Shown here: positions 1 through 28,801 of the stretch, one piece after another
How positions within the stretch are numbered: the stretch's first letter is position 1
Layout: every line of letters begins with the position of its first letter
Assembly (NCBI GenBank): GCA_015059065.1
Contig: SVBE01000006.1
Location: forward strand, 4,412 to 68,411
Direction: 5' to 3'
DNA: 64,000 nucleotides
DNA from: Erysipelotrichaceae bacterium
Lineage (GTDB): Bacteria > Bacillota_I > Bacilli_A > RFN20 > CAG-826
Program-made: the position numbers and the translations under genes
The notes under the pieces: model-generated
What the model was told of the DNA's origin: nothing
Databases searched by the model: none
What the model saw: the letters and a program-made list of their open reading frames with translations, nothing else

Positions 1-584
1 AAGACATCGTTATCTAAAGAGAATAAATCTATACCATATTTCTTGAAAGAAATATATGTCAGAGAGGAGACCTTATCCGTTGACGTAGATTTCACTCTCA
101 CGAATGGTGAACCATCATAGTAGACATTTTTAATATTATCCTGACGATAGATAGATGTGTTGATGAACTGTTGGAGGTCGGTAGAGAGCAAAGTATCATT
201 CACCGTGTCGATAATGGCAACTCCACCTGCCGCGCTTGTATAGGTATATTTACCTTTATAGCCGTCCACACTTATAAAAAACTTTCCTAAGTGATGAGAA
301 TAGAAATCGGACAATTTGAGATAAGGGATATTTTTAAGTCCATCTTCACGGAAATAAGCATTGACCATCGTCTTCACGTCTTTAGAACGGAGAAACGCTG
401 CCATCTTCTTACGGTTAAAGGTTACTCCATCAATCACTACCCTATCTGGGTCGATGCTAGAAGATGGTTCACTAGAACTAGAAGAAGACTCACTGCTAGT
501 AGAAGATGAGGAGGGAGACTGCTGTCCGCACCCCACAAGCAAAAACACTAATAAACTATAGACGAACAATTTTGATTTCTGCAT
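1..584 (-). CDS. Putative lipoprotein (partial; C-terminus lies beyond the window start)
   Basis: Minus-strand ATG at 584..582 preceded by AAGGGGAAG RBS. N-terminus MQKSKLFVYSLLVFLLVGCGQQ has a lipobox (LVGC) followed by a Ser-rich linker. Open reading frame continues to position 1. Not in the ORF track because it is truncated by the window edge. Confidence 0.6.
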   Translation of the reverse strand, partial: MQKSKLFVYSLLVFLLVGCGQQSPSSSSTSSESSSSSSEPSSSIDPDRVVIDGVTFNRKKMAAFLRSKDVKTMVNAYFREDGLKNIPYLKLSDFYSHHLGKFFISVDGYKGKYTYTSAAGGVAIIDTVNDTLLSTDLQQFINTSIYRQDNIKNVYYDGSPFVRVKSTSTDKVSSLTYISFKKYGIDLFSLDNDV

Positions 585-696
585 AATAATATCTTCCCCT
601 TAATATCGGTATTATATTTTACATATATGTGCATATCAATACGATTTCAAAACAAAAGGGGGCATAACCCCCTATTAACATCAATTGAATTGATAA

Positions 697-1221
697 TTAA
701 CCAACTAATGAACTGAGTTTGACGTCGAGATCAGCGTTGAGGTTATGAGTCCATTTCGCTTTTTCACCAAAAGTGAATGTCACATAGGCACGATCTGCAC
801 CGACGAGGTCATCACCGGCTGTTTCTCTGAAATATTCTTGTAATTGAGTGCAATCCAATCCTTTCATCACTTGGACTGAAGCAGAAACATTACCTTCTTT
901 TTCAGTGACAACGATTAAATGGAAGTTGCTACCGCTTTCTAAATTTTGGTTCACTGTGATGCGGTCACTATCCTTAATGGAGGATGTGCTGATATTCGTG
1001 CTTAAAACGAAATTGCCATAGCTGAATTGAAGAGTCGCTGGAACATCGAATAAATCAAAACGCACTTGCTTGTTGGTTAAAAAGTCTAAATATTGCCATT
1101 TAGTTGGTTGAGATTCAGAAGTAGATGGCTCTGGTCCAACTGATGGAGTAGATGGCTCTTTGCTTCCACAGGCACCGAGCATTAATGTCATAAGGGCAAT
1201 TGGTAATAACTTAAGTTTCAT
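697..1221 (-). CDS. Putative lipoprotein (174 aa from internal Met; ORF track gives a longer 697..1320 version)
   Basis: MKLKLLPIALMTLMLGACGSKEPSTPS is a signal peptide with lipobox (LGAC) followed by a Pro/Ser/Thr linker. AAAGGAGAAAAC RBS lies immediately upstream of the ATG at 1221. The upstream 33 codons of the longer ORF do not look like a signal peptide. Confidence 0.6.
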   Translation of the reverse strand: MKLKLLPIALMTLMLGACGSKEPSTPSVGPEPSTSESQPTKWQYLDFLTNKQVRFDLFDVPATLQFSYGNFVLSTNISTSSIKDSDRITVNQNLESGSNFHLIVVTEKEGNVSASVQVMKGLDCTQLQEYFRETAGDDLVGADRAYVTFTFGEKAKWTHNLNADLDVKLSSLVG

Positions 1222-1380
1222 AAGTTTTCTCCTTTTTGATCCTTGATATAATACAAATATTCTTTTCTTTTCACAATACAAAAGGTAATCTCCAAAGAAC
1301 AAAGAAACACTTTTTAACAATTAACGATTAATAGTAAAAAGGAGACAATTAATGTCTCCTAAATCGTGAATTACTAAATA

Positions 1381-4300
1381 TTATTTAATGATTTTCACTT
1401 GTCCACCGAGAAGAGCGATCATCTTCACCGCTTGAAGGGAATAATCATTTAAGCAAACAGTTAATTTCTTATTTAATGTTCCTCTTGCTAATAATTTGAC
1501 AGATCCTGTTTTAGAAGGAATAAGTTTTTTAGCAATTAACGCTTCGATGGTCACTTCATCACCATTATTGAAACTATTTGATAAAGTATCGATGTTGATG
1601 ATTTCTTTTTTACCGATGCGCTTTTTATGCACTGTATCTATTTCAATAGATGCTTCGGCTTTTTCATCTGACATTTGTTTATCAGCTTCTTCAACAGTGA
1701 TGGACTGCACTATTTCTTCTTTTTGGCCAACTTTAGTTTTCACCTCTTTGATAAGACCTTTTTCTAATAAAACTTTAGTTTCTTCAAATGGAACTCTGAA
1801 TTCTTCATTAGATTCTTTGCCTTTTTCGGTTGGAACATTACCCATTACAGTATCGATTAAGTCTTTTGCATAATCTCTTCTTCTATCGTTTTTAATACGG
1901 TATAAGCATGGGACATCTTCAAATTTCTTAGACTCCACTTTTTCTACTTTGTATTTAGAGTCAGCATAATCATCCGCGTTAAGAGCAAAGTATAAACATA
2001 ATGTCTTACCTCTAATGGCAAACTTGATGACTTGGTTTCTACCAACATTGATAGAATCGAAATGCCATGACACTCTGCTGTTGGCCTTTTTATAGCCTAG
2101 AGCATAGTTTTTAAGCTCGTTATAGTAATCCTTGAGTTCTTGTTCAGCTTGAGAAAGTTTCGCGGTGAATGACTTGATATATCTAATTTCAAAGATATTA
2201 CCATTTCTATCTTGTTTAGTGATTACTTCATCACCATCCGCGTTAGTGACGACGCTTAAGATTTGTGTTTCTCTCGCTGGTTTATTGACTTGAACTTTGA
2301 GTTCTTTGATTAATCCGCGAGCGATAAGAGGTTTATTCTCTTCATAATGGAGATAATAAGATTCTTTTTGTTCTTCACCTTTTTCTAAACCAAGGTTATT
2401 CATCACGACATCGATGAGTTCTTTCGCATATTCGCATCTTCTATCATTCTTAATACGGTATAAGCAAGGAACATCTTCAAACTTCTTAGATTCAACCTTT
2501 TCTACTTTATATTTAGAATCAGCATATTCATCCACATTAAGAGGGAAATATACACCTAATGTTTTTCCTCTAACTGCAAATTTAAGAACTGGGTTTCTTC
2601 CAGAGTTGATGGAATCGTAATTCCAAGAAACTCTAGAAGTAGTTTTCTTATATGAAAGAACATAGTTTTTGAGTTCTTCATAATATTTTTTAGATTCTTC
2701 ATTTGCTTGAATGAGTTTAGCAGTGAATGATTTGACAAATCTGATTTGGAAGATATTGCCTTTCTCATCAGTGACTGTCACTGTTTCTTCCTCTTCTGAA
2801 TCAGAAACTGGTTCTTGTAAAAGAGGTTGAGGAATTGGCTGAGCAACTGGAGCAGTTTGCACTGCTGGAGCTGCTGTCATATCCATCTTTTTCTCTTTTT
2901 TGAAGAGATTTTTAATGTTCTTAAAGGCTTCTGGATGTTTGATGAACATCACTAGCAAGGCGATTAAGACAACAAGTAATAATCCAGCGAGGACATATAA
3001 GACGATGAAACGTGAATCTAAATAATGGGATCCCGCGAGAATAACTGGAATAAATGCGAACGACATCGCCTTCACTCCTCTCTTCGCTTTGAGATTGGAT
3101 AGAACCATTAAGAGTAATAATGGCGCGCCTAATCCAAGTAAGACAGAAACAAGAACGATTAAGACGATATGTATAATATTTGCAGTGTTTTCTTGACTTG
3201 CGTAATTAGATTCTGCTTGTTCAAGGACTGCAAAGTCAGCTTTATTGACCATTGCTTTTTGTTCTTCGCTCATTTCGTCATAAGCTTTTCTCGCTTCCGC
3301 AATGAGAGTTTCAGATTCAGCAGTATATTCAGCGTTGCCGATTGCATAAATCTTATCTAAAGTAGCGTAAACTGTTTCACCATCTTCGATTCTTTGTAAA
3401 GCTTCTTCTGGTAATAAAGCTTTTTGATCTTGAGAGAGGGCTTCGTATTCTTTTCTCGCTTCTTTAATAGCACTATCACTACGAGCATCATAACGGAGGT
3501 CAACGATAGAATCGGACTTAGTAACTGCATTATCAACAGCATAGTAATCAGTAACAGCTTTGTTTAAAGCGTTAGTGTTATCAATCGCTTGTTTTTGTTC
3601 AGCATTTAAAGAATCATAATATGCTTTCGCATCATCGATAAGTGCTTTGCTTTCTTTGGTATAAGCAACTTTACCGATGGAATCGATCTTATCCATTGAT
3701 TCAAAGACTTCTTCAATTTCTTCAAGTTTAGTAAGAGTTTCTTCACTTACTTTACCTTGTTGATATTCAGTTAATTCATCATAAGATTCTCTAGAAGCGA
3801 GTACTTCTTCTAAGTCTTGGCGAGTAACTTTAGAAACGTCTGGTAACTCAGTGATCATGTCACTAGTGTCCTTCGCCGCTTCAATATCAGCGATTTCCAC
3901 TTCTGCTTCTTCGAGTTTTTCAAGCACATCAGCTGGGACATTTGCCTTGGCTTCATCGCTTAAGGCTTCATATTCATCTCTAACTGCTTGGACACTTTCT
4001 TTATCTTCGAACACTAATTCACCAACGATTGGCAATTCGACGATATCTAATGTCGATTCAGAAGAAGTTAATGTATCGAGAGTTTCTTTTGTAACTTTTG
4101 CTTTTTGATCATCAGTTAAAGCATCATAGGCTTCTCTAGCCGCTTTAATTGTATCTTCACTATCCGCTGTGATTTCGCTAGTTTCTGGAAGTTCAACGAT
4201 TTGTAAAGTTGTTTCTGCGGCCACTAATGTGTCAACTGTATCTTGTGAGACTAAAGCTTTTTGTTCTGGAGTTAAAGCATCATAAGCTTCTCTCGCCGCT

Positions 4301-7300
4301 TCGATATCTTCTTCGGATTCTGGGGTGATATCAGATACATCTGGAAGTTCAGAGACTGTTAAGGCAGTTTCTGCAGCGATTAATGTATCGAGAGTAGCTT
4401 TAGCTACTTTGGCTTTTTGATCAGCAGATAAAGCCTCATAAGCTTCTCTAGCAGCTTCAATAACCGCTCTACTTTCTGGAGTAATTTCACTTGTCGCTGG
4501 AAGTTCAACGATTTGTAAAGTCACTTCTGCAGCAATCAATGTGTCAAGAGTACCTTGGGTAGTCTTTTCTAATTGAGCAGCAGTTAATGCATCGTAGGCA
4601 GTTCTAGCAGCTTCAATCGCAGTTCTACTAGTTTTAACAATTGCTTCACCCGCAGGTAATTCAACGATTTGTAGAGTAGTTTCTGCGGCCACTAAAGTAT
4701 CGAGAGTAGATTGTGGGACAAATGGTTTTTGTTTGTCGTCATTTAATGCATCATAAGCGTCTCTAGCAGCTTTGATTGCATCAGCATCAGTGGTCTTAAT
4801 ATTATCGCCCACAGGTAATTCAACGATACCAAGTACCGCTTCGGCGACGACTAATTTATCAACAGTGTATTGTGGAACTCTTTCTTTTTGAGCATCACTG
4901 AGTTTATCAAATGAAGCTCTCGCAGCAGCGATTGCAGTTGCATCAGTGGTCTTAATATTTTCACCAACTGGGAGTTCAACGATTTCGAGTACTGTTTCTG
5001 CAACGACGAGCGTATCTACAGTTGATTGCACCACTTTGGCCTTTTGTTCAGAAGACAAAGCTTCATAAGCTGTTCTTGCAGCTTCAATAGTCTCTCTACT
5101 ATTAGGAGTGATATCTGAATCAACTGGGAGTTCAACGATTTGAATAGTCATTTCAGCAGCGACTAAAGTATCAACAGTTGCAGGTGCGACTTTGGCTTTT
5201 TGGTCATCGCTTAATGCTTCGTAAGCAGTTCTTGCTGCATCAATTTCAGCTCTGCTAGTAGTAATGATTGCTTCGCCCGCAGGTAACTCAACAATAGTTA
5301 ATGTAGTTTCTGCGGCAACTAAAGTGTCAACAGTCGCTTGAGCAACTTTCGCTTTTTGGTCATCGCTTAATCCTTCATAAGCTGCTCTGGCTGCTTCAAT
5401 CGCTGCTTTACTAGTTGTCACAATCGCTTCACCAGCAGGTAATTCAACAATTTGTAAAGTCTTTTCGGCGGCCACTAAAGTATCAACCGTAGCTTGAGCG
5501 ACAAGACCTTTTTGTTTATCACTTAAAGCTTCATATTGTTCTCTCGCTGCTTCAATTGCAGTTTTATCCGTAGCTTTGATATCGTTACCAACTGGGAGTT
5601 CAGCAATTGCTAAGGCAGATTCAGAAGCAATTAATTTATCTCTAGAAGCATAAGGCACTAATTCTAATTGTGCGTCGCTTAATAAGTCATATGCAGTTCT
5701 AGCAGCGCGAATTACATCTCCATTTGCAGAAGTAACATCACTAACAGCAGGTAATTCAACAATTTGTAATGTCATTTCTGATGCCACTAAAGTATCAAGA
5801 GTTTCTTGAGCAACTTTGGCTTTTTGCTCGTCGCTTAATAAGTCATATGCAGTTCTAGCCGCTTTAATAACTTCTTTATCATCAACACTAATCAAAGTTA
5901 TTTCTGGAAGTTCGACGATTTGTAATGTTGTTTCAGCTGCTACTAAAGTATCGACTGTAGCTTGAGCGATCTTCGCTTTTTGGTCATCGCTTAATGCTTC
6001 GTAAGCAGTTCTAGCGGCAGCAATATCGGTTGCGTCAGTTGTCTTAATGTCAGTACCAGAAGGCAATTGAACGATTTGTAAAGTTTTTTCAGCAGCGACT
6101 AATGTGTCAACAGTAGCTTGAGCAACTTTGGCTTTTCTGTCATTGCTCAATGCATCATAAGCAGTTCTGGCAGCAGCAATGGCAGTTGCATCAGTTGTCT
6201 TAATGTCAGTACCAACCGGAAGTTTAACGATTTGTAAAGTAGTTTCAGCAGCAACTAATGTGTCGAGAGTTGTTGAATCAACCTTAGCCTTTTGAGCGTT
6301 ATCTAATGCGTCATAAGCATCTCTTGCAGCTTTTATTGCATCGGCATCAGTAGTCTTGATACTATCACCGGCAGGTAATTCAACGATTTGTAAAGTAGTT
6401 TCTGCGGCCACTAAAGTATCGAGAGTAGATTGTGGGACAAGACCCTTTTGATCATTATTTAAATCTGTGTAGGCTTGTCTTGCTGCTTCAATAGCTGCTT
6501 TATCAGTTGTTTTAATGTCAGCACCAGCAGGAAGTTTAACGATATCGAATACTGCTATAGAAGCGGCAAGGACATTCTTTTTCGCTTCTGGAACCATATT
6601 TTTCTGTTCTGGAGTTAATCCATCAAATGATTGTTTAGCGGCATTAACTGCTTGAGCAGATGAAACATCTATCTTATCGATATCAGGAATTTCAACAATT
6701 CGTAATGTCGCTTCAGAAGTGTAGATTTTATCAACAGAATCAGCAGGAATGAGTGCTTTTTGTTCATCTGTTAAGGCTTCATACGCTTTCTTAGCATTTT
6801 TAATGTCGTTAGCAGCTTCAGGGGTAATATTTTCGTCGATATTTTCGGCTGGTAAGATTCTATCGCAATAGATAATTGTTGCTGAGGCTAATAAATTGTT
6901 CTTAGCAGCATCAGGAACGAGAGCTTGTTGAGCCTCGGTCAATTTTAAGTAACGATCACAGGCATTAACAACATTATTTTTCACTTCATCACTAACACCA
7001 CTGATAACTTCATCAACCGTTGGAAGTCCAATGATGCTTAAGATGAATTCAGAAGCAATAAGTTTATCCTTAGCAGATTGTGGGACTAAAGCTTGTTGAT
7101 TTTCTGTTATAGCGTTATATGCAAATCTCGCTGAGGCAATAGCTTCTGCATCAGATGCTGTAACTGCACTTGTTTCAGGGAGTTTAACAATAATTAATGT
7201 GGTTTCCGCGGCAACAAGAGTATCAATAGTACCTTGAGCAATCAAAGCTTCTTGGTCATCACTTAAATCTGTGAAGGCTTGTCTTGCTGCGGCAATTACA

Positions 7301-10300
7301 GTTTCATCAGTTGCCTTAATATTATCTCCAGCAGGGAGTTTAACAATTTGTAAAGTAGTTTCCGCGGCAACAAGAGTATCTAATGTCGCTTGTGGAACGA
7401 GAGCTTGTTGAGCAGGATTTAAATCTGTATAAGCAGTTCTTGCTGCTGCAATTACAGTTTCATCAGTTGTTTTGATATCTGTTCCAGCAGGGAGTTTAAC
7501 AATTTTAAGCACCGCTTCAGAAGCAATAAGTTTATCAAGAGTTGCTTCTGGAACTAACGCTTCTTGCTTATCGCTTAACGCATCAAAAGTAGTTCTTGCG
7601 TTTTGAATAATTTGCTCAGAAGCAGAAGTAATGTTTGCTGCAGCTGGAATATCAACGATTGCTAATGTGGCGTTAGAGGCAAATAATCTATCCTTAACTT
7701 CATTAGGAACAAGATTCTTTTGCTCATCACTTAAAGCATCATATCCTGATTTTGCATCAAGAATAGCTTTCTTCTCGTTAGCAGTAACACCATCAGCAAT
7801 TTCACTAATAGTTGGTAATTCAATAACAGCTAAAATGTTTTCAGCAGCAACTAGTTTATCAAAAGTTGTTTGTGGCACTAAAGCTTCTTGTTTTGGAAGT
7901 AAAATATCATAACTCTCTCTTGCATTTTTAATAGCATCTCTATCTGTTACTTGAATAGCAAGACCATCAGGAAGTTCAATGATATTAAGTGCCGCTACAG
8001 AAGAAAGTAACTTATCGACAATTGAGTCAGCTAACATTTCTTTTTGGCCAACGGATAAAGTGTCGTAGAATTTCTTTGCATCTTTAATTGCTTTTGCATC
8101 TGTAGCTGAAATATCTTCATCAATATCACTTGCGCCAAGAATTTCAAAGACATCGATAGTTAAAGAAGCAGTGAGAACTTTATCAACTGTATCTTGATTA
8201 ATATTTGCCTTTTCTTCATCTGTGAGTTCGTCATATTTAGCTTTTGCTGTAACAATAATGTCTTTATCATCAATGGTAATTGTAGAAACATCGATATCTT
8301 TTAAATCAGCATTGATTGATGCTTCAGCTGCGGCAGAATAAGTATCTTCGGCAGCAACAAGGATATCGTAGTTAGTAACAAATACTTTTTGATCTGCAAT
8401 TAATCCATTATAACCTTCACGTGCAGCGACAATTTTGTTATGGCTTGCTTCGGTATATGTCACCTCTCCAATATCGTTAATTAAATCGTAGACGACTTTC
8501 GCAGCGGCCATATCAGTCATTCTCTTTTCCGCAGCAGTTAATGTATTTAAAACTGTATCGGACACTAATGCTTCTTGGTCAACGTCTAATGCGTCATAAG
8601 AAGCTCTTGCAGCAACAACAGCGGTATAATCATCAAGACCGAGGTCATCGAGCGCAGGAAGGTTAAGAATTTCAACTGCGACGTTTGAAGCAATAAGTTT
8701 ATTATATAAAGCAGTAGGAACTTTGCCTTTTTGATAATCTGTAAGACCAGTATAAGCATCTAAAGCGTTGCTAACAGCTGTCGCATCAGTAGCAGCAATA
8801 TCTTCTTTACTAGGAAGGTTATTAATTGCATCGATAACTGCTTGAGCTGCTTCTAAGTTGGCAATTTCAGTCTCAGTGTCAGTTAATATCTTTAATACCA
8901 CATCGCCAATAATTGTCTTTTGGTTTTCAGATAAATTATCGTAAACATTTCTTGCGGCTACCACTGCTGGTTTATCAGAAAGTGATAATTCACCATCGCC
9001 TGGAATCTTTTCAGCAATAGGGGGGAAGGACTTAACAGTAATAGTCCATTCAGAGGCAACTAATTTATCAATAGTGCCTTGAGTAATATACGCTGCTTCT
9101 TCAGTAGTAAGGGCAGTATATTTTGCTCTCGCGGCTGTCACTAAGTTAGCGTCAGCCGATACGACGATATCTTTTGGAGTAGGAAGGGCATTAATTGCGC
9201 TTGTTACAAATCCCGCACATGTTTCTTCAGCTGCTTGTAATGTAACATAATTAGTGACGAGGAGTTTTTGAGCAACAGTTAATGAATTATATGCGGTACG
9301 AGCTGTATCAATCTTAGTTTTGCTAGCAGCTGTATCAGCAACTTCACCAATGGCAGTGATTTTATCATCCACTGCATTAGCGGCCTTAATATCAACAATC
9401 TTTTGTTCAACGGCTTGTAAATGAGAAAGATTTTTAACAAGTCCTCGTTGATAATCAGTTAAAGCGTCATATGAATTTCTAGCATGAATAGCGGCCTCTT
9501 CATTATCTAAAGTAGTTCCGCTATAATCTGGTAACACATCAATCTCATCGTCCACCATCTTTCCAAATTCATCGTCGCCATTAACACGGATGACTTTCCA
9601 AATTTGCTTTTCATTAGTCGCAACATAATAACCCATGTTGGTATCGTTGTCGCGTAAAGTGATTACATAATCATATTTATTTTGGTCAGTGACAACACAG
9701 CGAATAAAATATTCGTTATCTTCCATATCAACGCCTTTACGTTTTGAGAAACGGAAGACATTGGTATTGTTTTCACTAAGTGCAGTAGTAATGTTAACTA
9801 GACCAAGAGCACGATTTTCAGTAAGCGCTGTGCCATTTGAAGCAACATCTAAAAGTCTATTTGCAACACTAAGGTCATTAATATTTTCTAATGAGTAGTA
9901 AACATTTGTGCCTTGGATAGTTGTTTTCCATTTAAACGCTCTATTGCTAGTATTGTTATTATTGATTGTTTCACTATCATAGACAGCAACTTTAATAGTT
10001 GAGCCATCGTAGTTTAAAATTGCTTTTGTACTATCGGTAGCCGAAACAAAGATATATGTTCCTTTTTCAAGGGTAATATTATCTGTCCAGCTTTCTCTTT
10101 CACCTCTAATCTCAGCATTTGTTAATGTAGTAAGATTTGTAACATTGGCTTTTTGTGCGTCTGTAAGTAGATTATAAGCATAACGCGCTTGCTCAATAAG
10201 GTGTCTATTTTCAAAACTAATGTTATCTAAAGCCGGAAGTGAATTGATTAAATTGATGACATCAGTAACTTCCTGGTTCTCAGCAGTAGTTTCGATTTGA

Positions 10301-13300
10301 TTATACTTTGTTTCGACATCAGTTAAGATTGAAAGTGTTTCACTGGTAACGTATGCTTTTTGAGCGTCAGTTAAGGCATCGTACGCTACACGCGCTGTTT
10401 CAATATCATCTTTATGAAGTAAAGTTACATTAGCAACTGCTGGTAAACCATTGATAAGTGAAGAAACTTTGAATGCAAGTTTCGCATCATTTATATTCTT
10501 TTCTTCTGTGCTTTGTACATTTCTAAGCATTTCATGTGCTTCAAGTTTGAATAGGTCTGAAGAACAGAATTTATTCTTTTGTGCAACAGTTAAAGTTTCG
10601 TATGCTTGACGTGCTAAATCAAAAGATATTTCTTGTTCATAAGGAAGAGTAGCTATATCTATTTTTCTATGGCAATCTCTACATCCAAAATGGTATTCGT
10701 CGATTAAATCATCATAGAATCTACCAATTCTTTCATGGAGACATTTTGTACCACAAAGCGAGCAAATACCATTTTCATCAAATGTGGAAATACATTTTGG
10801 AACGACATAGAAGTTACGGCCCTGTGGTATTTCTTTCCAGTTTGTTTTGTCAACATCCAATCTATAAGTAAAGACTTTAGTTCCTGCTTCACAGTAGTAA
10901 CGATCTATCTTCCATGAACTATCTGTTAAATTATAAACAATAGGGCTATCTGAATTATGAGTGATGGTTGCACGAGCAGTATGGTAACCACCTTGGTATT
11001 CAAATCTCCACCACACTTCAACCTCTTGTGCAGTAGGTAATTCAAATGTAACAGTTATAGTTGCATTACCTGGAGTAATTGTCCAGTTCGGAATTTGAGG
11101 GAAATTAACTCTTCTACCAATAGATGAATATGCGGCATCATCGCTTGCATACGCATAATCTTTAATTTCGGATTTAGATGTTACAGTGCTAGTTACATTA
11201 GCAAGACTATGTGTACAGTCATCATCACCAGTATAATGCTCCATAATCTCAGCAAGAGCAGTTTTTGCATCATCAAGTTTGGTGACTGTTGCAGCTGGAA
11301 CATATGCCTGTTCCGCTTCAGTCATATCGTCGAATTCATCACTTGCTTTTTCAATGTTATATTTATCAGCAATAGTAATTTCATCATCAATTAATGTTTC
11401 AATATCATTAGCAACGAAAGAAGCGTATTGCTCTTCAGCATCTTGGAGAAGTGATAAGTATCTCACAAGAGCTTTTTGTTCTGGAGTTAATAAATTATAG
11501 GCTTCGCGTGCAGCCACGATTAAATCATGGCATGCGTCAGTGTATTCAAATTTACCAATAGCTCTAATAAGGGTATCTACATCATCTGCGTAATCTCTAT
11601 CACCGAAAATATGAACATTGGAAACATATCCATTGACAGATGGTCTTCCATTATTAAGATCTTTGGCAACATAACCTTCAGGAATTGCGATAGAAGCACT
11701 TCTTTCCTCAATATTCGCTTTTGATAAAGTTAAGAAGCAGTTGGCTAAGACATATTTTGCTCCTGTTGTATTATCTGTACCAAGCATACCTTTGATCCCA
11801 CCTTTTTCAGGTACGCTGTTATCAAGCCTTACTGTTGCACCATCGCTAGCCCAAAGGACATAACTATATGGTGCAGTAGTAACATTTAAAACGTGACCAT
11901 TGAGATCAATCGTAATATCTCTTCTTAAAGTAATATATCCAGCAGCTTTATCTGAAAGGTCAACATCTTTTAACAAAGTGACTGTTTCGCCTTTCTTTGC
12001 TGCATTAAACGCTGTAAGGATATCTGTATAGTTAACATCGCCAATCTTTGCGACATTTTCAGTTTCAGAATATACAGCATAAGCAGTTTCTGCATTTTCT
12101 AATGTAGTATAATTTGTAACAAATGCTTTTTCTTCGTCATAAAGCTCTTCAAAAGCTTCTCTTGCTTCATCAATTTTCTCTTTGCACTCTTCTGTGTTCT
12201 CTACAGTACCAATTGCATTAATCTTATCGATAACAGCGTTTGAATGAGCGAGATATTGTGCATAATTATTTTCAAGGAAAACGAGAGTAGAGTAATTCTC
12301 CACTAAAGCTTTTTGTTTATCAGTTAATTCGTTGTACTGGTTACGAGCATTTGTAAGTTTATTTGCAAATTCTTCTGTACGTTCAATCTTTCCGATTTTG
12401 GAAATAGTAACTTCCACCACGTCTGCGACATCGTTATCTGCTTTAACAAGAGCGTATGCATTTTCAGCAGCAACGAGTTTGTCTAAAACAGAACCAGGTA
12501 CTTTATCTTTTTGATCTTGTGTTAAAGCATTGTAGTTATTTCTAGCAGAATCAATTCTGCTCTTATTTCCAATTACAATATTTTCACTAGCAGGTAAGCC
12601 GTTGATTTCAGAGACAACAAAATTTGCCGTTTTCCAATCAGCCATCTCAGCTAAAGCCGCTTGCAATTTGCTAAGGGCTGCAGCAGGTATCTTAGTTTTT
12701 TGATAATTACTTAATGCGTTATAACGAACGCTTGCTCTATTTACGGCATCATCATGTTCAAACAAAATCGTTTCTGGCAAAGCATCGATCATATCTTCCA
12801 CAGCTTTTGCTGTTTTTAAATCCACAATATCAGTTTCAGATGCGGTTAATTTTTCATATGTTTCAGCAGGGAATGCTGTTTTTTCACTACTTCTTAAAGC
12901 ATCATAAATAGTGCGAGCATTTTGAATAGCAGGTTCGTCAGAAAGCACAATTGAACCTACCGCAGGTATAGAATTAATAGTGCTTTTAACAAAATCAATA
13001 TAATCGCTTTCTGCTTTTGAAAGAGCTGTATATTTTTCAGCAGGCACTAATTCTTTTTGAGCGTCTGTTAAAGCTTCATATCTTTCACGCGCATAATCAA
13101 TTAATGATTTTGATGCTACTGTAGGTTCAACAACACCGATTGCATCAATTAATTCAGTTACATCGTCGGCGAACTCTTGATCGGTTCCAGTGCGTACAAG
13201 CGAAATGAAACCATCAGCATCTGGATTACCAGCGTTAATATTTCTAACAACACTACCACTGGCCAAACGATTAATTACTAAATCTGCTTTGATAGTAGGC

Positions 13301-15546
13301 TCAGATAAATCTAAACGACAGTGTTCGAGAGAAATATAAGAATTTTTTTCAACATCTACCCCAAAACTGCCTTTAACACCACCGACAGTTTCGCTTGTAT
13401 CTTTAACAGTGATAACTGCGCCAGATTTAGCGATAATTTTTGCATCTCCTGATGTTGTAATATCAAGAGTAAATCCATTGAGATCAAGCTTAATATTCTT
13501 GGTTACTTCAAAACTATCTGCCCCAGTTAAATCCAAATCATCAACAAGTTTAATTGTTCCGTTTGCTGAGACAACATTATATGCTTCAGCAAGCGAATGA
13601 TAGTTAACGCCATTTACTTGTGTATAAAGTCTTTTTGCTAGAAGAGTATTTTGGAACCATCCATCACCACCATCAGCATTTGGACGCAAATAGATGCGGT
13701 AGAAACCATCTTCAGGGATGGTATATGAGTCACCACTAGTTGGATATGTATCTTCTACACTACCATCTCCACCATAAACAACTGTACCATGAATTGCTTT
13801 AATGGTAGTACCAGCAGTCAATTTCTTTTCATAATAATATTCATCAGCATCAGTTACCGCTGTATTTTTGGTCATCAAATAATCTTCGACTACTTTGCCA
13901 TCAGTAACACTACCAACAAGATAATAGCCAATTGGATACCATCTTGCATAATAAGATTTAGCTCCGCTATCACCAGGAAGAATTTTGGCAACTGGTTCTC
14001 CAGTAAAAGTAGCGTTGTCCCACCAACCGCCGAAAGAATAATCTGTTTTTGTAATATTAGTTGGGAGTACTAATCCTTCAGCTTCAACATAGTAGGTTGG
14101 AGCTGGAGTAGCAAAAGTACCACCATTAGTGTTAAATGTAACTGTAGGATTCCAACTAGCCCAAAATTCTTTATTACCTATTGCATCTTTACCAATTGCT
14201 GTTACAGAATCACCAGTTAATGCTAAGTTATCGTACCAACCTACAAAGATATGGTTTTCTTTTGTTATATTAGTTGGGAGAGTTACTTCTGCTCCAGTCA
14301 TGTATATGCCTGGAAATCCGCCACTAAATTCACCACCGTTTAAATGATATGTAATTGTTTGTGCAGTAAAAGGACTATCTGAAATTTCACCTTCCGCACC
14401 ACAAATTGTAACAGTGCCACAAGAACCAGAATTGCCTCTACCAATAGCATTGCCATTTCCATCAGGGCCTTTTGTTGCTGTTAATGAAGTGACTTGGTTA
14501 CTAATTGTGATATTTCCACAACTTTCACCATCCCCACAACCAATGCCAGCTCCATTCCTACCACCTGTTGCAGTAATCGCACCACCATTAATTGTGATAT
14601 TTTCATATACTCCCCAATCACCACCACCGATACCAGCAGCTTTCTCACCACCTGTTGCAGTAATCACACCACCATTAATTGTGATTGTTCCACTTTTGCA
14701 CAGATTGCCACCGCCGATACCAGCACCGCCAGTATTGCCATCAGCACCGCCAGTAGCTGTAATCGTACCACCATTAATTGTGATTGTTCCGCCATTGCCA
14801 CTACTGCCACCACCAATGCCAGCTGCCCGCTCACCACCTGTTGCAGTAATCACACCACCATTAATTGTGATTGTGTCAACTGTAGCTTCATGATCATAAT
14901 CAAAACCAGAACCAATACCAGCAGCATTATCCGCACCACCTGTTGCAGTAATCACACCACCATGAATTGTAATTGCACCGACTGAAGAGTGAGAACCACT
15001 ACCAATTCCGGCACCATTACTTTTACCAGTTGCAGTTATAATACCACCATGAATTGTGATATCACCGCTAGCAACATTATACTTGGGGCCAATACCGGCA
15101 CGACCAGAACCAGTTACGGTGAGCTTACCAGCATCTTCTCCATCACTTTGTGCGTAAATCTTTATACTTGCTCCCTCGGTAAGACCTATGCCTTTGGTTG
15201 CAGTTAATTCAAAATTATCACAAAGAATTAAGTTGGCTGTCCCACTTACTTCAATTAAATCGCTAATATTTACATTGCTATTAACAACATACCATCCATC
15301 TGTCCAAGATGTTGTGCTATCTGTAACAATAGTATATTCACTACATCCGCCTTCAACACTTTTGACAGATTTGCTGCTTTCATCCCATGCCATATACGGA
15401 ACTGTATCCGCTGCAAGTGCTTCTTGAGCTACTTGGTTGTTTTTACTAACGAACAAACCCCCAATAGCAAATCCTGCACCTACAAATGCTAGCCCGCACG
15501 CGAAAATAAAAGAATAATTAGAAAATATTTTCTTTCTTTGCCCCAT
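1381..15546 (-). CDS. Giant (4721 aa) multidomain cell-surface repeat protein / putative adhesin with a C-terminal membrane anchor (3 TM helices) and a ~600-aa tail ending in a ribosomal uL15-like domain
   Basis: Single uninterrupted ORF with strong RBS (GAGGAGG, spacing 7) before ATG at 15546. N-terminal hydrophobic segment FIFACGLAFVGAGFAIGGLFV. Repeated Gly-rich motifs ITI(N/H)GG(V/T)ITATGG..AAGIGGG. Two Flg_new/Listeria-Bacteroides repeats (TITYHLNGG..WYDN.., VTFNTNGG..GWWDN..). Dozens of 52-aa helical repeats (A(R)xAYxxL(S/T)DxQKAKVxxATVDTLVAAExTLxIVELP). TM helices IIHIVLIVLVSVLLGLGAPLLLLMVL, AMSFAFIPVILAGSHYL and FIVLYVLAGLLLVVLIALLVMFI. C-terminal ~82 aa align with the uL15 C-terminal domain. 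Confidence 0.9.
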   Translation of the reverse strand: MGQRKKIFSNYSFIFACGLAFVGAGFAIGGLFVSKNNQVAQEALAADTVPYMAWDESSKSVKSVEGGCSEYTIVTDSTTSWTDGWYVVNSNVNISDLIEVSGTANLILCDNFELTATKGIGLTEGASIKIYAQSDGEDAGKLTVTGSGRAGIGPKYNVASGDITIHGGIITATGKSNGAGIGSGSHSSVGAITIHGGVITATGGADNAAGIGSGFDYDHEATVDTITINGGVITATGGERAAGIGGGSSGNGGTITINGGTITATGGADGNTGGAGIGGGNLCKSGTITINGGVITATGGEKAAGIGGGDWGVYENITINGGAITATGGRNGAGIGCGDGESCGNITISNQVTSLTATKGPDGNGNAIGRGNSGSCGTVTICGAEGEISDSPFTAQTITYHLNGGEFSGGFPGIYMTGAEVTLPTNITKENHIFVGWYDNLALTGDSVTAIGKDAIGNKEFWASWNPTVTFNTNGGTFATPAPTYYVEAEGLVLPTNITKTDYSFGGWWDNATFTGEPVAKILPGDSGAKSYYARWYPIGYYLVGSVTDGKVVEDYLMTKNTAVTDADEYYYEKKLTAGTTIKAIHGTVVYGGDGSVEDTYPTSGDSYTIPEDGFYRIYLRPNADGGDGWFQNTLLAKRLYTQVNGVNYHSLAEAYNVVSANGTIKLVDDLDLTGADSFEVTKNIKLDLNGFTLDITTSGDAKIIAKSGAVITVKDTSETVGGVKGSFGVDVEKNSYISLEHCRLDLSEPTIKADLVINRLASGSVVRNINAGNPDADGFISLVRTGTDQEFADDVTELIDAIGVVEPTVASKSLIDYARERYEALTDAQKELVPAEKYTALSKAESDYIDFVKSTINSIPAVGSIVLSDEPAIQNARTIYDALRSSEKTAFPAETYEKLTASETDIVDLKTAKAVEDMIDALPETILFEHDDAVNRASVRYNALSNYQKTKIPAAALSKLQAALAEMADWKTANFVVSEINGLPASENIVIGNKSRIDSARNNYNALTQDQKDKVPGSVLDKLVAAENAYALVKADNDVADVVEVTISKIGKIERTEEFANKLTNARNQYNELTDKQKALVENYSTLVFLENNYAQYLAHSNAVIDKINAIGTVENTEECKEKIDEAREAFEELYDEEKAFVTNYTTLENAETAYAVYSETENVAKIGDVNYTDILTAFNAAKKGETVTLLKDVDLSDKAAGYITLRRDITIDLNGHVLNVTTAPYSYVLWASDGATVRLDNSVPEKGGIKGMLGTDNTTGAKYVLANCFLTLSKANIEERSASIAIPEGYVAKDLNNGRPSVNGYVSNVHIFGDRDYADDVDTLIRAIGKFEYTDACHDLIVAAREAYNLLTPEQKALVRYLSLLQDAEEQYASFVANDIETLIDDEITIADKYNIEKASDEFDDMTEAEQAYVPAATVTKLDDAKTALAEIMEHYTGDDDCTHSLANVTSTVTSKSEIKDYAYASDDAAYSSIGRRVNFPQIPNWTITPGNATITVTFELPTAQEVEVWWRFEYQGGYHTARATITHNSDSPIVYNLTDSSWKIDRYYCEAGTKVFTYRLDVDKTNWKEIPQGRNFYVVPKCISTFDENGICSLCGTKCLHERIGRFYDDLIDEYHFGCRDCHRKIDIATLPYEQEISFDLARQAYETLTVAQKNKFCSSDLFKLEAHEMLRNVQSTEEKNINDAKLAFKVSSLINGLPAVANVTLLHKDDIETARVAYDALTDAQKAYVTSETLSILTDVETKYNQIETTAENQEVTDVINLINSLPALDNISFENRHLIEQARYAYNLLTDAQKANVTNLTTLTNAEIRGERESWTDNITLEKGTYIFVSATDSTKAILNYDGSTIKVAVYDSETINNNNTSNRAFKWKTTIQGTNVYYSLENINDLSVANRLLDVASNGTALTENRALGLVNITTALSENNTNVFRFSKRKGVDMEDNEYFIRCVVTDQNKYDYVITLRDNDTNMGYYVATNEKQIWKVIRVNGDDEFGKMVDDEIDVLPDYSGTTLDNEEAAIHARNSYDALTDYQRGLVKNLSHLQAVEQKIVDIKAANAVDDKITAIGEVADTAASKTKIDTARTAYNSLTVAQKLLVTNYVTLQAAEETCAGFVTSAINALPTPKDIVVSADANLVTAARAKYTALTTEEAAYITQGTIDKLVASEWTITVKSFPPIAEKIPGDGELSLSDKPAVVAARNVYDNLSENQKTIIGDVVLKILTDTETEIANLEAAQAVIDAINNLPSKEDIAATDATAVSNALDAYTGLTDYQKGKVPTALYNKLIASNVAVEILNLPALDDLGLDDYTAVVAARASYDALDVDQEALVSDTVLNTLTAAEKRMTDMAAAKVVYDLINDIGEVTYTEASHNKIVAAREGYNGLIADQKVFVTNYDILVAAEDTYSAAAEASINADLKDIDVSTITIDDKDIIVTAKAKYDELTDEEKANINQDTVDKVLTASLTIDVFEILGASDIDEDISATDAKAIKDAKKFYDTLSVGQKEMLADSIVDKLLSSVAALNIIELPDGLAIQVTDRDAIKNARESYDILLPKQEALVPQTTFDKLVAAENILAVIELPTISEIADGVTANEKKAILDAKSGYDALSDEQKNLVPNEVKDRLFASNATLAIVDIPAAANITSASEQIIQNARTTFDALSDKQEALVPEATLDKLIASEAVLKIVKLPAGTDIKTTDETVIAAARTAYTDLNPAQQALVPQATLDTLVAAETTLQIVKLPAGDNIKATDETVIAAARQAFTDLSDDQEALIAQGTIDTLVAAETTLIIVKLPETSAVTASDAEAIASARFAYNAITENQQALVPQSAKDKLIASEFILSIIGLPTVDEVISGVSDEVKNNVVNACDRYLKLTEAQQALVPDAAKNNLLASATIIYCDRILPAENIDENITPEAANDIKNAKKAYEALTDEQKALIPADSVDKIYTSEATLRIVEIPDIDKIDVSSAQAVNAAKQSFDGLTPEQKNMVPEAKKNVLAASIAVFDIVKLPAGADIKTTDKAAIEAARQAYTDLNNDQKGLVPQSTLDTLVAAETTLQIVELPAGDSIKTTDADAIKAARDAYDALDNAQKAKVDSTTLDTLVAAETTLQIVKLPVGTDIKTTDATAIAAARTAYDALSNDRKAKVAQATVDTLVAAEKTLQIVQLPSGTDIKTTDATDIAAARTAYEALSDDQKAKIAQATVDTLVAAETTLQIVELPEITLISVDDKEVIKAARTAYDLLSDEQKAKVAQETLDTLVASEMTLQIVELPAVSDVTSANGDVIRAARTAYDLLSDAQLELVPYASRDKLIASESALAIAELPVGNDIKATDKTAIEAAREQYEALSDKQKGLVAQATVDTLVAAEKTLQIVELPAGEAIVTTSKAAIEAARAAYEGLSDDQKAKVAQATVDTLVAAETTLTIVELPAGEAIITTSRAEIDAARTAYEALSDDQKAKVAPATVDTLVAAEMTIQIVELPVDSDITPNSRETIEAARTAYEALSSEQKAKVVQSTVDTLVVAETVLEIVELPVGENIKTTDATAIAAARASFDKLSDAQKERVPQYTVDKLVVAEAVLGIVELPVGDNIKTTDADAIKAARDAYDALNDDKQKPFVPQSTLDTLVAAETTLQIVELPAGEAIVKTSRTAIEAARTAYDALTAAQLEKTTQGTLDTLIAAEVTLQIVELPATSEITPESRAVIEAAREAYEALSADQKAKVAKATLDTLIAAETALTVSELPDVSDITPESEEDIEAAREAYDALTPEQKALVSQDTVDTLVAAETTLQIVELPETSEITADSEDTIKAAREAYDALTDDQKAKVTKETLDTLTSSESTLDIVELPIVGELVFEDKESVQAVRDEYEALSDEAKANVPADVLEKLEEAEVEIADIEAAKDTSDMITELPDVSKVTRQDLEEVLASRESYDELTEYQQGKVSEETLTKLEEIEEVFESMDKIDSIGKVAYTKESKALIDDAKAYYDSLNAEQKQAIDNTNALNKAVTDYYAVDNAVTKSDSIVDLRYDARSDSAIKEARKEYEALSQDQKALLPEEALQRIEDGETVYATLDKIYAIGNAEYTAESETLIAEARKAYDEMSEEQKAMVNKADFAVLEQAESNYASQENTANIIHIVLIVLVSVLLGLGAPLLLLMVLSNLKAKRGVKAMSFAFIPVILAGSHYLDSRFIVLYVLAGLLLVVLIALLVMFIKHPEAFKNIKNLFKKEKKMDMTAAPAVQTAPVAQPIPQPLLQEPVSDSEEEETVTVTDEKGNIFQIRFVKSFTAKLIQANEESKKYYEELKNYVLSYKKTTSRVSWNYDSINSGRNPVLKFAVRGKTLGVYFPLNVDEYADSKYKVEKVESKKFEDVPCLYRIKNDRRCEYAKELIDVVMNNLGLEKGEEQKESYYLHYEENKPLIARGLIKELKVQVNKPARETQILSVVTNADGDEVITKQDRNGNIFEIRYIKSFTAKLSQAEQELKDYYNELKNYALGYKKANSRVSWHFDSINVGRNQVIKFAIRGKTLCLYFALNADDYADSKYKVEKVESKKFEDVPCLYRIKNDRRRDYAKDLIDTVMGNVPTEKGKESNEEFRVPFEETKVLLEKGLIKEVKTKVGQKEEIVQSITVEEADKQMSDEKAEASIEIDTVHKKRIGKKEIINIDTLSNSFNNGDEVTIEALIAKKLIPSKTGSVKLLARGTLNKKLTVCLNDYSLQAVKMIALLGGQVKIIK
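1384..1630 (-). other. uL15 (ribosomal protein L15) C-terminal-domain-like segment at the extreme C-terminus of the giant protein
   Basis: Tail KEIINIDTLSNSFNNGDEVTIEALIAKKLIPSKTGSVKLLARGTLNKKLTVCLNDYSLQAVKMIALLGGQVKII was compared with B. subtilis RplO [75 protein letters not shown]. Shared positions include KE..N.D.L..F..G.EVT.E.L, VK.L..G.L.KKLTV, S..A...I...GG...I. Confidence 0.6.
1740..2840 (-). repeat. Intragenic tandem duplication (two ~540-bp copies, ~80-85% nt identity) encoding a duplicated ~180-aa module of the C-terminal tail
   Basis: DNA 1907-2000 (cgtttttaatacggtataagcatgggacatcttcaaatttcttagactccac...) closely matches 2440-2535 (cattcttaatacggtataagcaaggaacatcttcaaacttcttagattcaac...). 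Protein copies: GNIFQIRFVKSFTAKL..SRVSWNYDSINSGRN..KYKVEKVESKKFEDVPCLYRIKNDRR and GNIFEIRYIKSFTAKL..SRVSWHFDSINVGRN..KYKVEKVESKKFEDVPCLYRIKNDRR. Confidence 0.85.
2940..3190 (-). other. Three predicted transmembrane helices separating the large N-terminal region from the C-terminal tail of the giant protein
   Basis: Three hydrophobic 17-26-aa stretches: IIHIVLIVLVSVLLGLGAPLLLLMVL, AMSFAFIPVILAGSHYL and FIVLYVLAGLLLVVLIALLVMFI. They are flanked by KAKRGVK and KHPEAFKNIKNLFKKEKK (positive-inside-like). Confidence 0.6.
3950..7700 (-). repeat. Array of ~156-bp tandem DNA repeats encoding 52-aa helical (FIVAR-like?) protein repeats within the giant gene
   Basis: The unit ...ggtaattcaacgatttgtaaagt.gtttctgcggc.actaa.gt.tc.ac.gt.gcttgagc.actttggctttttggtcatcgcttaatgcttcgtaagcagttct.gc... 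recurs with high identity many times. Protein period is 52 aa (LPAGEAIVTTSKAAIEAARAAYEGLSDDQKAKVAQATVDTLVAAETTLTIVE). More divergent longer variants of the same motif extend roughly to 12500. Confidence 0.85.
13960..14400 (-). other. Two Listeria-Bacteroides repeat (Flg_new / InlB B-repeat-like) domains within the giant protein
   Basis: Motifs Y.LNGG.F....P.....G..V.LP...T....F.GWYDN......V and FNTNGG.F.........E...L.LPT.ITK..Y.F.GWWDN..F.G.P.... Confidence 0.6.
14380..15200 (-). other. Glycine-rich beta-solenoid-like repeats (~9 copies of ITI[NH]GG.ITATGG....AGIGGG) near the N-terminus of the giant protein
   Basis: Periodic protein motif. Its antisense reads as the Pro-rich spurious plus-strand ORFs 14414..14893 and 14494..14985. 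Confidence 0.55.
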
Positions 15547-15688
15547 AACAATACCTCCTCAAATAATTGTTTAGTGGTTTAGATAATTTATCTATTTAAT
15601 GTGTTTGAGTATAAACTCACTAAAAACGTAATTGAGAATAAATATTTATTCAAGGAAAAGAATCGTTAATTATACTTTCTATTATTCA

Positions 15689-15737: not shown

Positions 15738-16316
15738 ATGAAAAATATAGATAAAACCAAACAAGAATTTGAAAAAGCGTTATTCGCATTATTAGAAAAA
15801 GAAAACTATCATAACATCACAATCAACGAGATATGTTCCTTGGCTAATAAAACAAAAATGACTTTTTACCATTATTACAAAAATAAAGATCACCTATTAG
15901 CAGAAGCTTCTGTAAACATCATCAACAAAGAATATAATGATGAATACGAAAAGATATTAAAAAGAGAAACTGACCTTGAAGAAATTGAATATCAATCAAT
16001 CGTTGCAACATTTGATTGGGTCGCTAAACATTATAACCAAATACAAAACCTCTCTTATAAAGGTGAAACTCTTCCTTTAGAAATGTTTAAAAGAGCTCTA
16101 TTTGATAACTATAGGAATTATGTAAGCGATCTTGTTAAGACCAGTGGATATGATATTCCTAGTGACTATCTATCAGTATTCTGTTTTGAAGGAATATATG
16201 GGACTTGCCTATATTATGCCGAACATTTAAAAAATAGTAATGATAAAAACAAAGAAAAAGAAGATATTAAAAAGATGTGTCGATTGTTAGCGAAAGCAGT
16301 AATATCCATTATATAA
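15738..16316 (+). CDS. TetR/AcrR-family transcriptional regulator
   Basis: N-terminal HTH ITINEICSLANKTKMTFYHYYKNKDHLL matches the TetR_N signature (..I...aGvs.gt.Y.hFk.Ke.Ll). 192 aa, all-helical C-terminal region. Confidence 0.8.
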   Translation: MKNIDKTKQEFEKALFALLEKENYHNITINEICSLANKTKMTFYHYYKNKDHLLAEASVNIINKEYNDEYEKILKRETDLEEIEYQSIVATFDWVAKHYNQIQNLSYKGETLPLEMFKRALFDNYRNYVSDLVKTSGYDIPSDYLSVFCFEGIYGTCLYYAEHLKNSNDKNKEKEDIKKMCRLLAKAVISII

Positions 16317-16619: not shown

Positions 16620-17126
16620 TTATTTAATGATAGGAACGACTTTTATAATCGGCTTTTCTTTGTCTAAATGATTTTTATCTAAGATTGTTTTTGGCCTTAA
16701 GCAATATTTAGCATCAACAAATCCAATTGTGCATTTATTATCACTAGCGCCAAGTAAACATTTAATCGATCCTTTTTCAAAATCTTCTTGAACTTCTATT
16801 TCATTAATAAAGAAAGAATCGATATTTATCATATTCCTCATTTTTAATCTAACTAAACCTTTTAACTGTGTAGTCGAATCGCAGTCAAAATCTTCCATTA
16901 ATATTGACTCGTTGAAACATTTATTGAAGAAACATTCTGAAGATAACTTGGTTTTGACTCCCGTTAAATGCAAAAAGTTTGTTTCATAAAAACGAATAAT
17001 ATATTCCTTTTTCATCGTAAAACATTTAGAAGAAATAATGATCTTTTTATTGATCAAAGAATAATATTTCTTAGCTGATTCAATTAATCGATTTCTGATG
17101 GTTTCTTTGAAAGGTACGTTGTCCAT
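16620..17126 (-). CDS. Hypothetical protein (168 aa), Cys-containing, no confident family assignment
   Basis: ORF flanked on both sides by copies of the same terminator-like repeat and adjacent to tRNA-Arg. Contains motifs YIIRFYETNFLHLTGV and CxxxC-like cysteines. No recognisable catalytic signature. Confidence 0.5.
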   Translation of the reverse strand: MDNVPFKETIRNRLIESAKKYYSLINKKIIISSKCFTMKKEYIIRFYETNFLHLTGVKTKLSSECFFNKCFNESILMEDFDCDSTTQLKGLVRLKMRNMINIDSFFINEIEVQEDFEKGSIKCLLGASDNKCTIGFVDAKYCLRPKTILDKNHLDKEKPIIKVVPIIK

Positions 17127-17284: not shown

Positions 17285-17361
17285 TGGCACCCTCGAGGCG
17301 ACTCGAACGCCTGACCCACAGCTTAGAAGGCTGTTGCTCTATCCAACTGAGCTACGAGGGC
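17285..17361 (-). tRNA. tRNA-Arg (anticodon UCU)
   Basis: Reverse complement gccctcgtagctcagttggatagagcaacagccttctaagctgtgggtcaggcgttcgagtcgcctcgagggtgcca folds as a cloverleaf: 7-bp acceptor, D-arm gctc/gagc, anticodon loop cuUCUaa, T-loop ttcgagt, encoded CCA. Confidence 0.9.
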
Positions 17362-28787: not shown

Positions 28788-28801
28788 ATGTTTCCTCCTC
28801 C

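Follow-up and report, generated by a model that had tools for sequence, protein, structure and literature searches.

The window analysed here, a stretch of 64,000 nucleotides from an Erysipelotrichaceae bacterium (contig SVBE01000006.1, positions 4,412 to 68,411), carries a gene for a giant surface protein of 4,721 amino acids (aa), in which an acidic, adhesin-like fibre is joined through a membrane region to a basic, folded tail. This outside-inside pairing of an acidic surface fibre with a basic folded tail recurs among relatives in both fused and operonic form. We propose, tentatively and with slightly less than even confidence, that the surface fibre is physically coupled in this way to a cytoplasmic tail that would bind nucleic acid. 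An earlier, sequence-only reading of the same DNA had suggested that an extracellular fibrillar structure is coupled to the inside of the cell, and the core of that suggestion is supported, as an acidic ectodomain, a transmembrane (TM) region and a predicted cytoplasmic tail of non-adhesin character lie on one chain. The gene is defined by two features:

1381..15546, minus strand: open reading frame (ORF) of the giant surface protein, 4,721 aa, without an internal stop
15554..15560, minus strand: Shine-Dalgarno sequence GAGGAGG, 7 nt upstream of the ATG

The 4,721-residue ORF is real. Its 4,721 stop-free codons in DNA of 37% GC do not arise by chance, and the same protein, identical throughout, is encoded on a 79-kb metagenome contig of the Joint Genome Institute (JGI; sample 3300021288), which was found in four samples. 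The intragenic DNA repeats (period 156 nt) are only 70-81% identical to one another, which, together with the identical protein on a contig from four samples, makes repeat collapse or chimerism unlikely. The length of the ORF (14.2 kb), its strong ribosome-binding site and the order of the domains along the protein all agree with the sequence-only reading, small corrections to the domain order aside; the strand had not been given there.

The ectodomain and the tail are connected by a membrane region, in which three segments can be distinguished:

3100..3177, minus strand: first TM helix (TM1, aa 4124-4149) followed by the basic loop SNLKAKRGVK; corresponds to the type-I anchor of the surface-protein gene in loci where the protein is split into two genes
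2938..3072, minus strand: conserved helical hairpin (aa 4159-4203), made up of a weak TM2 (KAMSFAFIPVILAGSHY), an HYLDSR turn and a strong TM3
2770..2937, minus strand: basic stop-transfer sequence (KHPEAFKNIKNLFKKEKK) followed by a Pro/Glu-rich flexible linker (aa 4204-4259)

TM1 and TM3 (aa 4180-4203) are strongly hydrophobic, with a mean Kyte-Doolittle value of 2.9, and the TM2 segment (aa 4159-4175) is weakly so (1.05); of the three TM helices read earlier, two are therefore firm and the third is plausible, hanging on the weak middle segment. The predicted location of the tail in the cytoplasm, also part of the sequence-only reading, is supported by several features of the family. Among 245 family proteins with a TM segment ahead of the first tail module, the 15 residues that follow the last TM before the module contain on average 4.67 lysines and arginines, versus 1.03 in the 15 residues before the TM, and a positive-inside bias toward the tail side was present in 226 of the 245. 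Moreover, 62 of 307 module proteins have neither a TM segment nor a signal peptide, and in some relatives a signal peptide and an ectodomain are followed by just one TM ahead of the tail. In split loci, TM1 is the type-I anchor of the surface protein, and TM2 and TM3 make up the hairpin with which a separate tail protein starts. The opposite arrangement would place the tail outside, where it would bind non-covalently to anionic polymers of the envelope or to extracellular DNA and so act as an anchor, in the manner of GW, SLH or CWB2 domains; it would suit the strongly basic modules, and it would follow if the weak TM2 did not cross the membrane, since just two true TM helices would leave the tail outside. 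Nevertheless, it is very improbable: the family-wide bias is strong, neither the single-TM relatives with signal peptides nor those lacking both TM and signal peptide can put the module outside, the soluble relatives are joined to a nuclease-associated domain, and in the split form TM1 closes a type-I protein of its own, with a cytoplasmic stop of the KKRKK type.

Beyond TM3 the tail comprises 518 aa, so that the C-terminal region of about 600 aa described in the sequence-only reading holds only if the TM region is included. The absence of adhesin character noted there stands, and the region is not anonymous, as it consists of two modules of about 170 aa each (about 70% mutual identity) and a terminal domain related to ribosomal protein uL15. 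Two of its features are:

2251..2769, minus strand: cytoplasmic module 1 (aa 4260-4432), basic (isoelectric point, pI, 9.1), with a YjbR/YdhG-like double-wing fold and a C-terminal helix/strand extension
1384..1611, minus strand: paralogue of the uL15 C-terminal globular domain (aa 4646-4721), PF00828, 40.2 bits

The module adopts the double-wing alpha+beta fold seen in MmcQ/YjbR and YdhG-like proteins, and among its closest neighbours in structure is the domain with which the T4 transcription activator MotA binds DNA. The AlphaFold2 model that forms part of the evidence for the identity of the tail has a mean predicted local distance difference test score (pLDDT) of 89.6, and one module together with the uL15-like domain makes a compact, well-folding construct of 280 aa. 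At the sequence level, the tail has no Pfam hit to MmcQ/YjbR (PF04237) or DUF1801 at E<=1. A Pfam scan of 32 diverse modules returned nothing significant, with faint single-copy echoes of DUF1801 (E 0.081), DUF5655 (0.021) and DUF3788 (0.021); one relative matches DUF1801 at E 6.1e-5, yet below the cutoff. A profile built from the 32 modules gave no hit at E<=10 in an hmmsearch of all PDB sequences, and the NCBIfam model MAG0920 matched the TM/linker region weakly and not significantly (E 0.02). Across the 498 module copies examined, the median pI is 9.6 and the net charge +9. Near-invariant residues of the tail are Y36, K40, R52, S54, W55, R64, K69, R73, K75, K92, R111, R117, K245, K254 and K269. 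The terminal domain belongs to PF00828 (Ribosomal_L27A; the L15/L18e/L27A superfamily; cutoff 21.5 bits) and aligns with residues 70-146 of Firmicute uL15 in solved chains (E 1.9e-9). It is not a true RplO: the TIGR01071 equivalog model scores 35.3 bits against a cutoff of 77.95 and covers model positions 72-143 of 144 only, the cutoff being missed because the N-terminal half of uL15 is absent.

The tail unit is widespread. Searches with the tail recovered at least 1,477 proteins in 90%-identity clusters, and searches with the module recovered at least 2,856, 1,941 and 469 clusters at 50% identity (E<=1e-3, 1e-10 and 1e-30, respectively). At least 549 loci were found in species-representative genomes, with two to three paralogues in some metagenome-assembled genomes (MAGs); all 80 loci kept for comparison come from MAGs of rumen or gut origin. 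The titles of 79 name Bacillota, and the groups represented are Erysipelotrichaceae-like Bacilli, Acholeplasmatales, Clostridia and Christensenellaceae. Tail identity to many family members is 60-80%, and the giant protein carries the complete family signature, which consists of the TM hairpin HY.D..[FY]I.LYVLAGL, one or more modules and, at the C-terminus, a uL15-like domain. Members, among them P0001, P0052, P0059 and P0060, are named 'uL15 family ribosomal protein' by NCBI or, in some cases, 'ribosomal protein L15' by JGI; this naming is a systematic misannotation that derives from the C-terminal domain alone. No description of the family was found in the literature searched.

A census of 79 loci revealed four architectures. 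In the fused form (35 loci, 25 of them complete) the tail follows an ectodomain of 800-4,700 aa, the giant protein being the longest complete example seen. In the split form (7 loci) the distance between the two adjacent genes ranges from -53 to +66 nt, and in several loci they overlap by 4 nt. The product of the first gene begins with a signal peptide, continues as a large ectodomain and finishes with a C-terminal TM that has a KKRKK-type stop behind it; the product of the second has a short hydrophobic N-terminus, a strong TM, the linker and the tail. In 25 loci the tail unit stands behind a short N-terminal TM in a protein of 370-950 aa, and in 4 loci the protein is soluble, without signal peptide or TM. 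The two parts thus exist both separately and fused, a distinction that the sequence-only reading had drawn as one to look for; the build that it took to be unusual is not a one-off, since it recurs in dozens of fused proteins of 1,000-4,700 aa within a family of thousands. The stand-alone tail proteins begin with MKAMS, which corresponds to VKAMS at aa 4158-4162 of the giant protein. This junction and the split loci indicate that in the giant gene a type-I surface protein has been fused to a tail protein with a TM hairpin. An artefact, either a misassembly across the repeats or a sequencing error joining two adjacent genes, might be considered because the source is a metagenome contig and because split versions exist, some with a 4-nt overlap that a single indel could convert into a fusion. 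It is nevertheless hardly credible: besides the identical protein in four samples and the divergence of the DNA repeats, 25 complete fused homologues from independent assemblies share the order of the giant protein and the same TM1-loop-TM2-TM3 junction, and the TM1-TM2 loop is in frame and conserved.

The soluble multi-module members of the family carry three to seven tandem modules, with the nuclease-associated domain DUF2357 in 11 of 14 scanned. Of 32 diverse modules, 18 match the PADLOC candidate defence model PDC-S18 (best E 1.6e-10); the tail of the giant protein has no PADLOC hit, and its own modules do not reach E 0.01 against PDC-S18. Soluble relatives such as P0156, P0158 and P0166 combine tandem modules with DUF2357 and match PDC-S18, so that the module family also occurs in candidate anti-phage nucleases. 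A tblastn search of phage and plasmid collections with the tail picked up true rplO genes alone, by way of the uL15-like domain, and at this sensitivity the family is therefore not apparently phage- or plasmid-borne.

Within the double-wing fold, DNA binding has been proposed for YjbR and is known for MotA (PMC7641849). From the basic modules, their YjbR/MotA fold, the nuclease-type neighbours of the soluble relatives and the rRNA-binding origin of the terminal domain, we infer that the tail may bind nucleic acid, either chromosomal DNA or rRNA and ribosomes. The favoured mechanism would then unite in a single membrane-spanning polypeptide two partners that elsewhere are separate, translationally coupled genes. 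The first would be an adhesin-like fibre, with a beta-solenoid head and Flg_new repeats at its tip, beta-rich inserts on a helical stalk of about 50 repeats and TM1 as its anchor; the second would consist of the TM hairpin (weak TM2 and TM3), the flexible acidic linker and the basic tail with its two double-wing modules (YjbR/YdhG/MotA-C-like) and uL15-like domain. By binding the nucleoid or ribosomes, the tail could tie the fibre mechanically or spatially to a large intracellular body, and this tie would keep the fibre in the membrane of a possibly wall-less organism, or set its position there. The most likely role of the fibre itself would be to attach to rumen or gut particles or cells.

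Several observations weigh against this proposal. TM2 is weakly hydrophobic, and the three-pass topology of the giant protein is itself a prediction from sequence. The putative ligand, which might be DNA, RNA, a ribosome, an anionic lipid or a protein, is deduced solely from the fold, the charge and the neighbouring domains; protein-protein and iron-related roles are likewise served by the frataxin/YjbR fold, and the giant protein's own modules match neither YjbR, DUF1801 nor PDC-S18 by sequence. No conserved neighbour indicates a pathway, and the family is also present in Clostridia, including Christensenellaceae MAGs. The last are a walled group, and compensation for a missing wall is therefore not a general explanation for the family.

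Transmembrane signalling would use the same topology differently: the ectodomain would sense contact or pulling, and the tethered DNA-binding tail would act in place, as in ToxR and CadC, or after regulated proteolysis of a Notch-like or RsgI-like kind. Variable ectodomains on a conserved cytoplasmic unit, with several paralogues in some genomes, are typical of sensor families, the T4 MotA DNA-binding domain is among the nearest structural relatives of the module (PMC7641849), and LytS/LytTR-type two-component genes lie downstream in 6-7 loci. This explanation is nonetheless improbable, as no protease site, S2P or other release machinery, or conserved target promoter was found, gene neighbourhoods are not conserved, the uL15-like domain has no precedent among transcription factors, and 4,000 aa of ectodomain that include 50 helical repeats suggest a structural element more than a ligand sensor. 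Alternatively, the tail might aid biogenesis by bringing ribosomes or mRNA to the membrane, so that long surface proteins are made and exported at a fixed site. The uL15-like domain is truly paralogous to a ribosomal protein domain that binds rRNA, and where the locus is split, an overlap of 4 nt or a gap of 2 nt couples translation of the tail gene to that of the gene for the giant surface protein. However, in the fused form the tail is made last and could not help the export of its own chain, 25 of the 79 loci have the tail unit without an adjacent surface-protein gene, and the soluble relatives indicate DNA, not ribosomes; a role in biogenesis is accordingly given little probability. Physical coupling of the fibre to a nucleic-acid-binding tail is the reading we retain. 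A broader version, in which the unit of TM hairpin, double-wing modules and uL15-like domain would be an unrecognised and widespread Bacillota device linking surface proteins, either fused to it or encoded by the gene upstream, to the chromosome or ribosomes, is less likely than not but a real possibility; one variant of it would be a DNA-binding tail releasable on contact, in a Notch-like manner.

The ectodomain (aa ~47-4120) is strongly acidic (pI 4.4) and is, in its composition, an ordinary mosaic adhesin with the following features:

15409..15546, minus strand: signal peptide or signal anchor (aa 1-46), with an RKK n-region, hydrophobic aa 13-33 and an ALA|AD motif
14362..15408, minus strand: N-terminal cap and Gly-rich beta-solenoid (Beta_helix_3, PF18889; aa 47-395), with a Tandem Repeats Finder (TRF) period of 87 nt
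13936..14361, minus strand: two Listeria-Bacteroides repeats (Flg_new, PF09479/TIGR02543; aa 396-537), matched by profile
13147..13626, minus strand: duplicated beta-rich module, copy 1 (..KLDLNGFTLDITT..; aa 641-800), without a Pfam match
11557..12051, minus strand: duplicated beta-rich module, copy 2 (..TIDLNGHVLNVTT..; aa 1166-1330), 30% identical to copy 1
10567..11226, minus strand: beta-rich region with a Cys cluster (aa 1441-1660; 8 Cys within aa 1585-1625), without a family match
9562..10146, minus strand: beta-rich insert (aa 1801-1995) with a faint, sub-threshold echo of a ricin-type beta-trefoil (E 0.012)
3949..8046, minus strand: core tandem array of about 26 strict 52-aa helical repeats (aa 2501-3866), from the repeat census with a hidden Markov model (HMM)

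At the N-terminus, IFAC (aa 14-17) resembles a lipobox, yet it is followed by 16 further hydrophobic residues, so that this part of the protein resembles either a signal anchor or a long signal peptide. The solenoid matches PF18889 above the cutoff in 5-6 stretches, at 64.9 bits when the whole protein is scanned and 85.6 bits for the segment. Its turns of about 29 aa at aa ~150-380 comprise six canonical ITI[NH]GG.IT units and about two degenerate ones, rather than the approximately nine repeats counted earlier. The remaining elements of the sequence-only reading were recovered much as described. The two Flg_new stretches score 60.9 bits against a cutoff of 27 (TIGR02543, 29.3 against 20.95), the 'LDLNG..L.[IV]TT' modules read as beta-helix-like duplicates are true duplicates (E 4e-24), the Cys cluster is present, and the dozens of 52-aa helical repeats number about 50 by HMM. 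No Pfam family matched aa 535-2005 (ectodomain segments B to E), the RicinB-like signal in the insert being the sole echo.

Outside the core array, divergent helical repeats were found at aa 800-1160, 1327-1440, 1661-1800, 1996-2500 and 3867-4118. Each 52-aa unit is composed of helices of 15, 4 and 17 residues and an LPxGxxI linker, and an AlphaFold2 model of three units is all-helical (pLDDT 95; predicted template modelling score 0.86); a Foldseek search of the helical repeat against the PDB returned nothing at E<=0.001. Pfam gave no FIVAR (PF07554), GA or DUF1542 match at E<=0.01 on the full protein, and the profile check of the FIVAR and pectate-lyase models likewise found neither in the protein; matches in the helical region were limited to DUF3106, Catalase-rel and EndoS_helical, with no individual stretch significant. 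A C-terminal LPXTG signal is absent, and the only LP[EA]TS strings are three within helical repeats (aa 2789, 3682 and 3786). The protein was thus correctly read as not built for sortase, its C-terminus being the folded tail. The closest full-length relative, P0127 (2,767 aa), has the same head and tail and 15 helical repeats versus 50, which indicates that the length of the stalk varies through repeat expansion.

Upstream of the giant gene lies one further feature of the sequence-only reading:

15738..16316: divergent TetR gene (TetR_N, E 5.9e-8)

The divergent pairing holds at this locus, and beyond close relatives it is not conserved (4 of 81 loci have it). Among the loci compared, no partner gene was universally conserved; 9 of them have an MscS-like gene downstream. 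An ORF of 168 aa (16620-17126, minus strand), situated between the TetR gene and a tRNA gene (17288-17361, minus strand), has a PBECR4 domain (E 3.5e-14; a phage-Barnase-EndoU-ColicinE5/D-RelE-like nuclease) and may be toxin-like or a mobile remnant. Directly downstream of the giant gene, a lipoprotein gene (697..1320, minus strand) has the lipobox LGAC, a Ser/Pro/Glu-rich linker and no family match; a corresponding gene in L001 is followed by S41 and M13 peptidase genes. The wider surroundings are housekeeping genes (uvrC, mutS2, rnhC, rluD, lspA, ileS, ftsZ, ftsA, mraW, pheST, glgP, glgB, dnaE, polA and thrS). In the division cluster (27681-31395), ftsA and ftsZ come immediately after mraW (rsmH), any intervening ftsL, pbp, mur, ftsW or ftsQ being absent, and no peptidoglycan-synthesis genes (mur, ftsW, pbp) were found among the larger window ORFs scanned against Pfam. 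This Mollicutes-like cluster suggests a wall-less or wall-reduced host, and it is because the organism may lack a wall that tethering of the fibre may matter.

Some members of the family also lie close to excision-repair genes. In the seven Christensenellaceae loci with a short TM-module-uL15 gene (L066, L068, L071, L072, L074, L076 and L079), uvrB and uvrA are downstream in all seven and pnp is upstream in six (not L074). The fused gene adjoins uvrC in the window (17407-21454), in L005 and in L073, and in the window and L073 mutS2 as well, so that closeness to excision-repair genes is seen again in lineages far apart from each other, two in number. The window encodes one further predicted surface protein (62205-63761, minus strand; 518 aa), which contains BspA-type leucine-rich repeats (LRR_5, E 1.2e-21), and similar iterated repeats are found in the 2,234-aa ORF that is the upstream partner of the split tail gene in L064. 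A 469-aa ORF elsewhere in the window (54164-55573, plus strand) joins the Fpg N-terminal and H2TH domains to CoaE. Formamidopyrimidine-DNA glycosylase and dephospho-CoA kinase are normally encoded by two adjacent genes, and the ORF represents either a fusion or a lost stop codon.

Among known systems, the staphylococcal proteins Ebh and Embp are similar in having an N-terminal secretion signal and a megadalton-scale ectodomain made mainly of tandem alpha-helical repeats. Ebh is anchored by a C-terminal TM region with a cytoplasmic domain and not through LPXTG and sortase (PMC6548404), which gives this mode of anchoring a precedent. The giant protein differs from both in lacking FIVAR, GA and DUF1542 matches, in combining an anchor helix with a hairpin, and in carrying 518 aa of folded, conserved cytoplasmic domains. 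Compared with uL15 (RplO), the terminal domain lacks the extended, rRNA-penetrating N-terminal half (residues 1-70) and stands at the end of a membrane protein. The modules share with MmcQ/YjbR (PF04237), DUF1801 and the MotA C-terminal double-wing domain a basic surface and fusions of the nuclease or defence type (PMC7641849), but they have no significant Pfam match, are longer (about 170 aa), bear a conserved C-terminal helix/strand extension and occur in tandem. The soluble DUF2357/PDC-S18 proteins contain the same module family in three to seven tandem copies and differ in having no TM, ectodomain or uL15-like domain, with the nuclease-associated domain instead.

In the literature searched, we found no account of the conserved cytoplasmic unit, in which a uL15-domain paralogue is combined with double-wing modules, or of the systematic way in which surface proteins are coupled to it. 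Thousands of rumen and gut Firmicutes proteins share this unit of a duplicated ribosomal-protein domain and DNA-binding-type modules, tied directly or by way of the adjacent gene to very large surface proteins, and their systematic misannotation as a ribosomal protein is corrected here. If the tail does bind DNA or ribosomes, surface fibres would be wired mechanically or informationally to the cell interior, and a ribosomal protein domain would have been recruited to a non-ribosomal, membrane-proximal role. To our knowledge, such wiring is not an established principle for bacterial adhesins. In concept, the closest counterparts are ToxR, CadC and RsgI-type anti-sigma factors, in which an extracellular domain is linked through the membrane to a cytoplasmic nucleic-acid or transcription module and paralogues have variable ectodomains; there, however, the cytoplasmic domain is N-terminal, in the opposite orientation, and belongs to unrelated families, and no sign of regulation was found here. 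If the proposal is correct, the outside-in linkage would be comparable in its logic to the coupling of integrins to the cytoskeleton or to LINC-type coupling.

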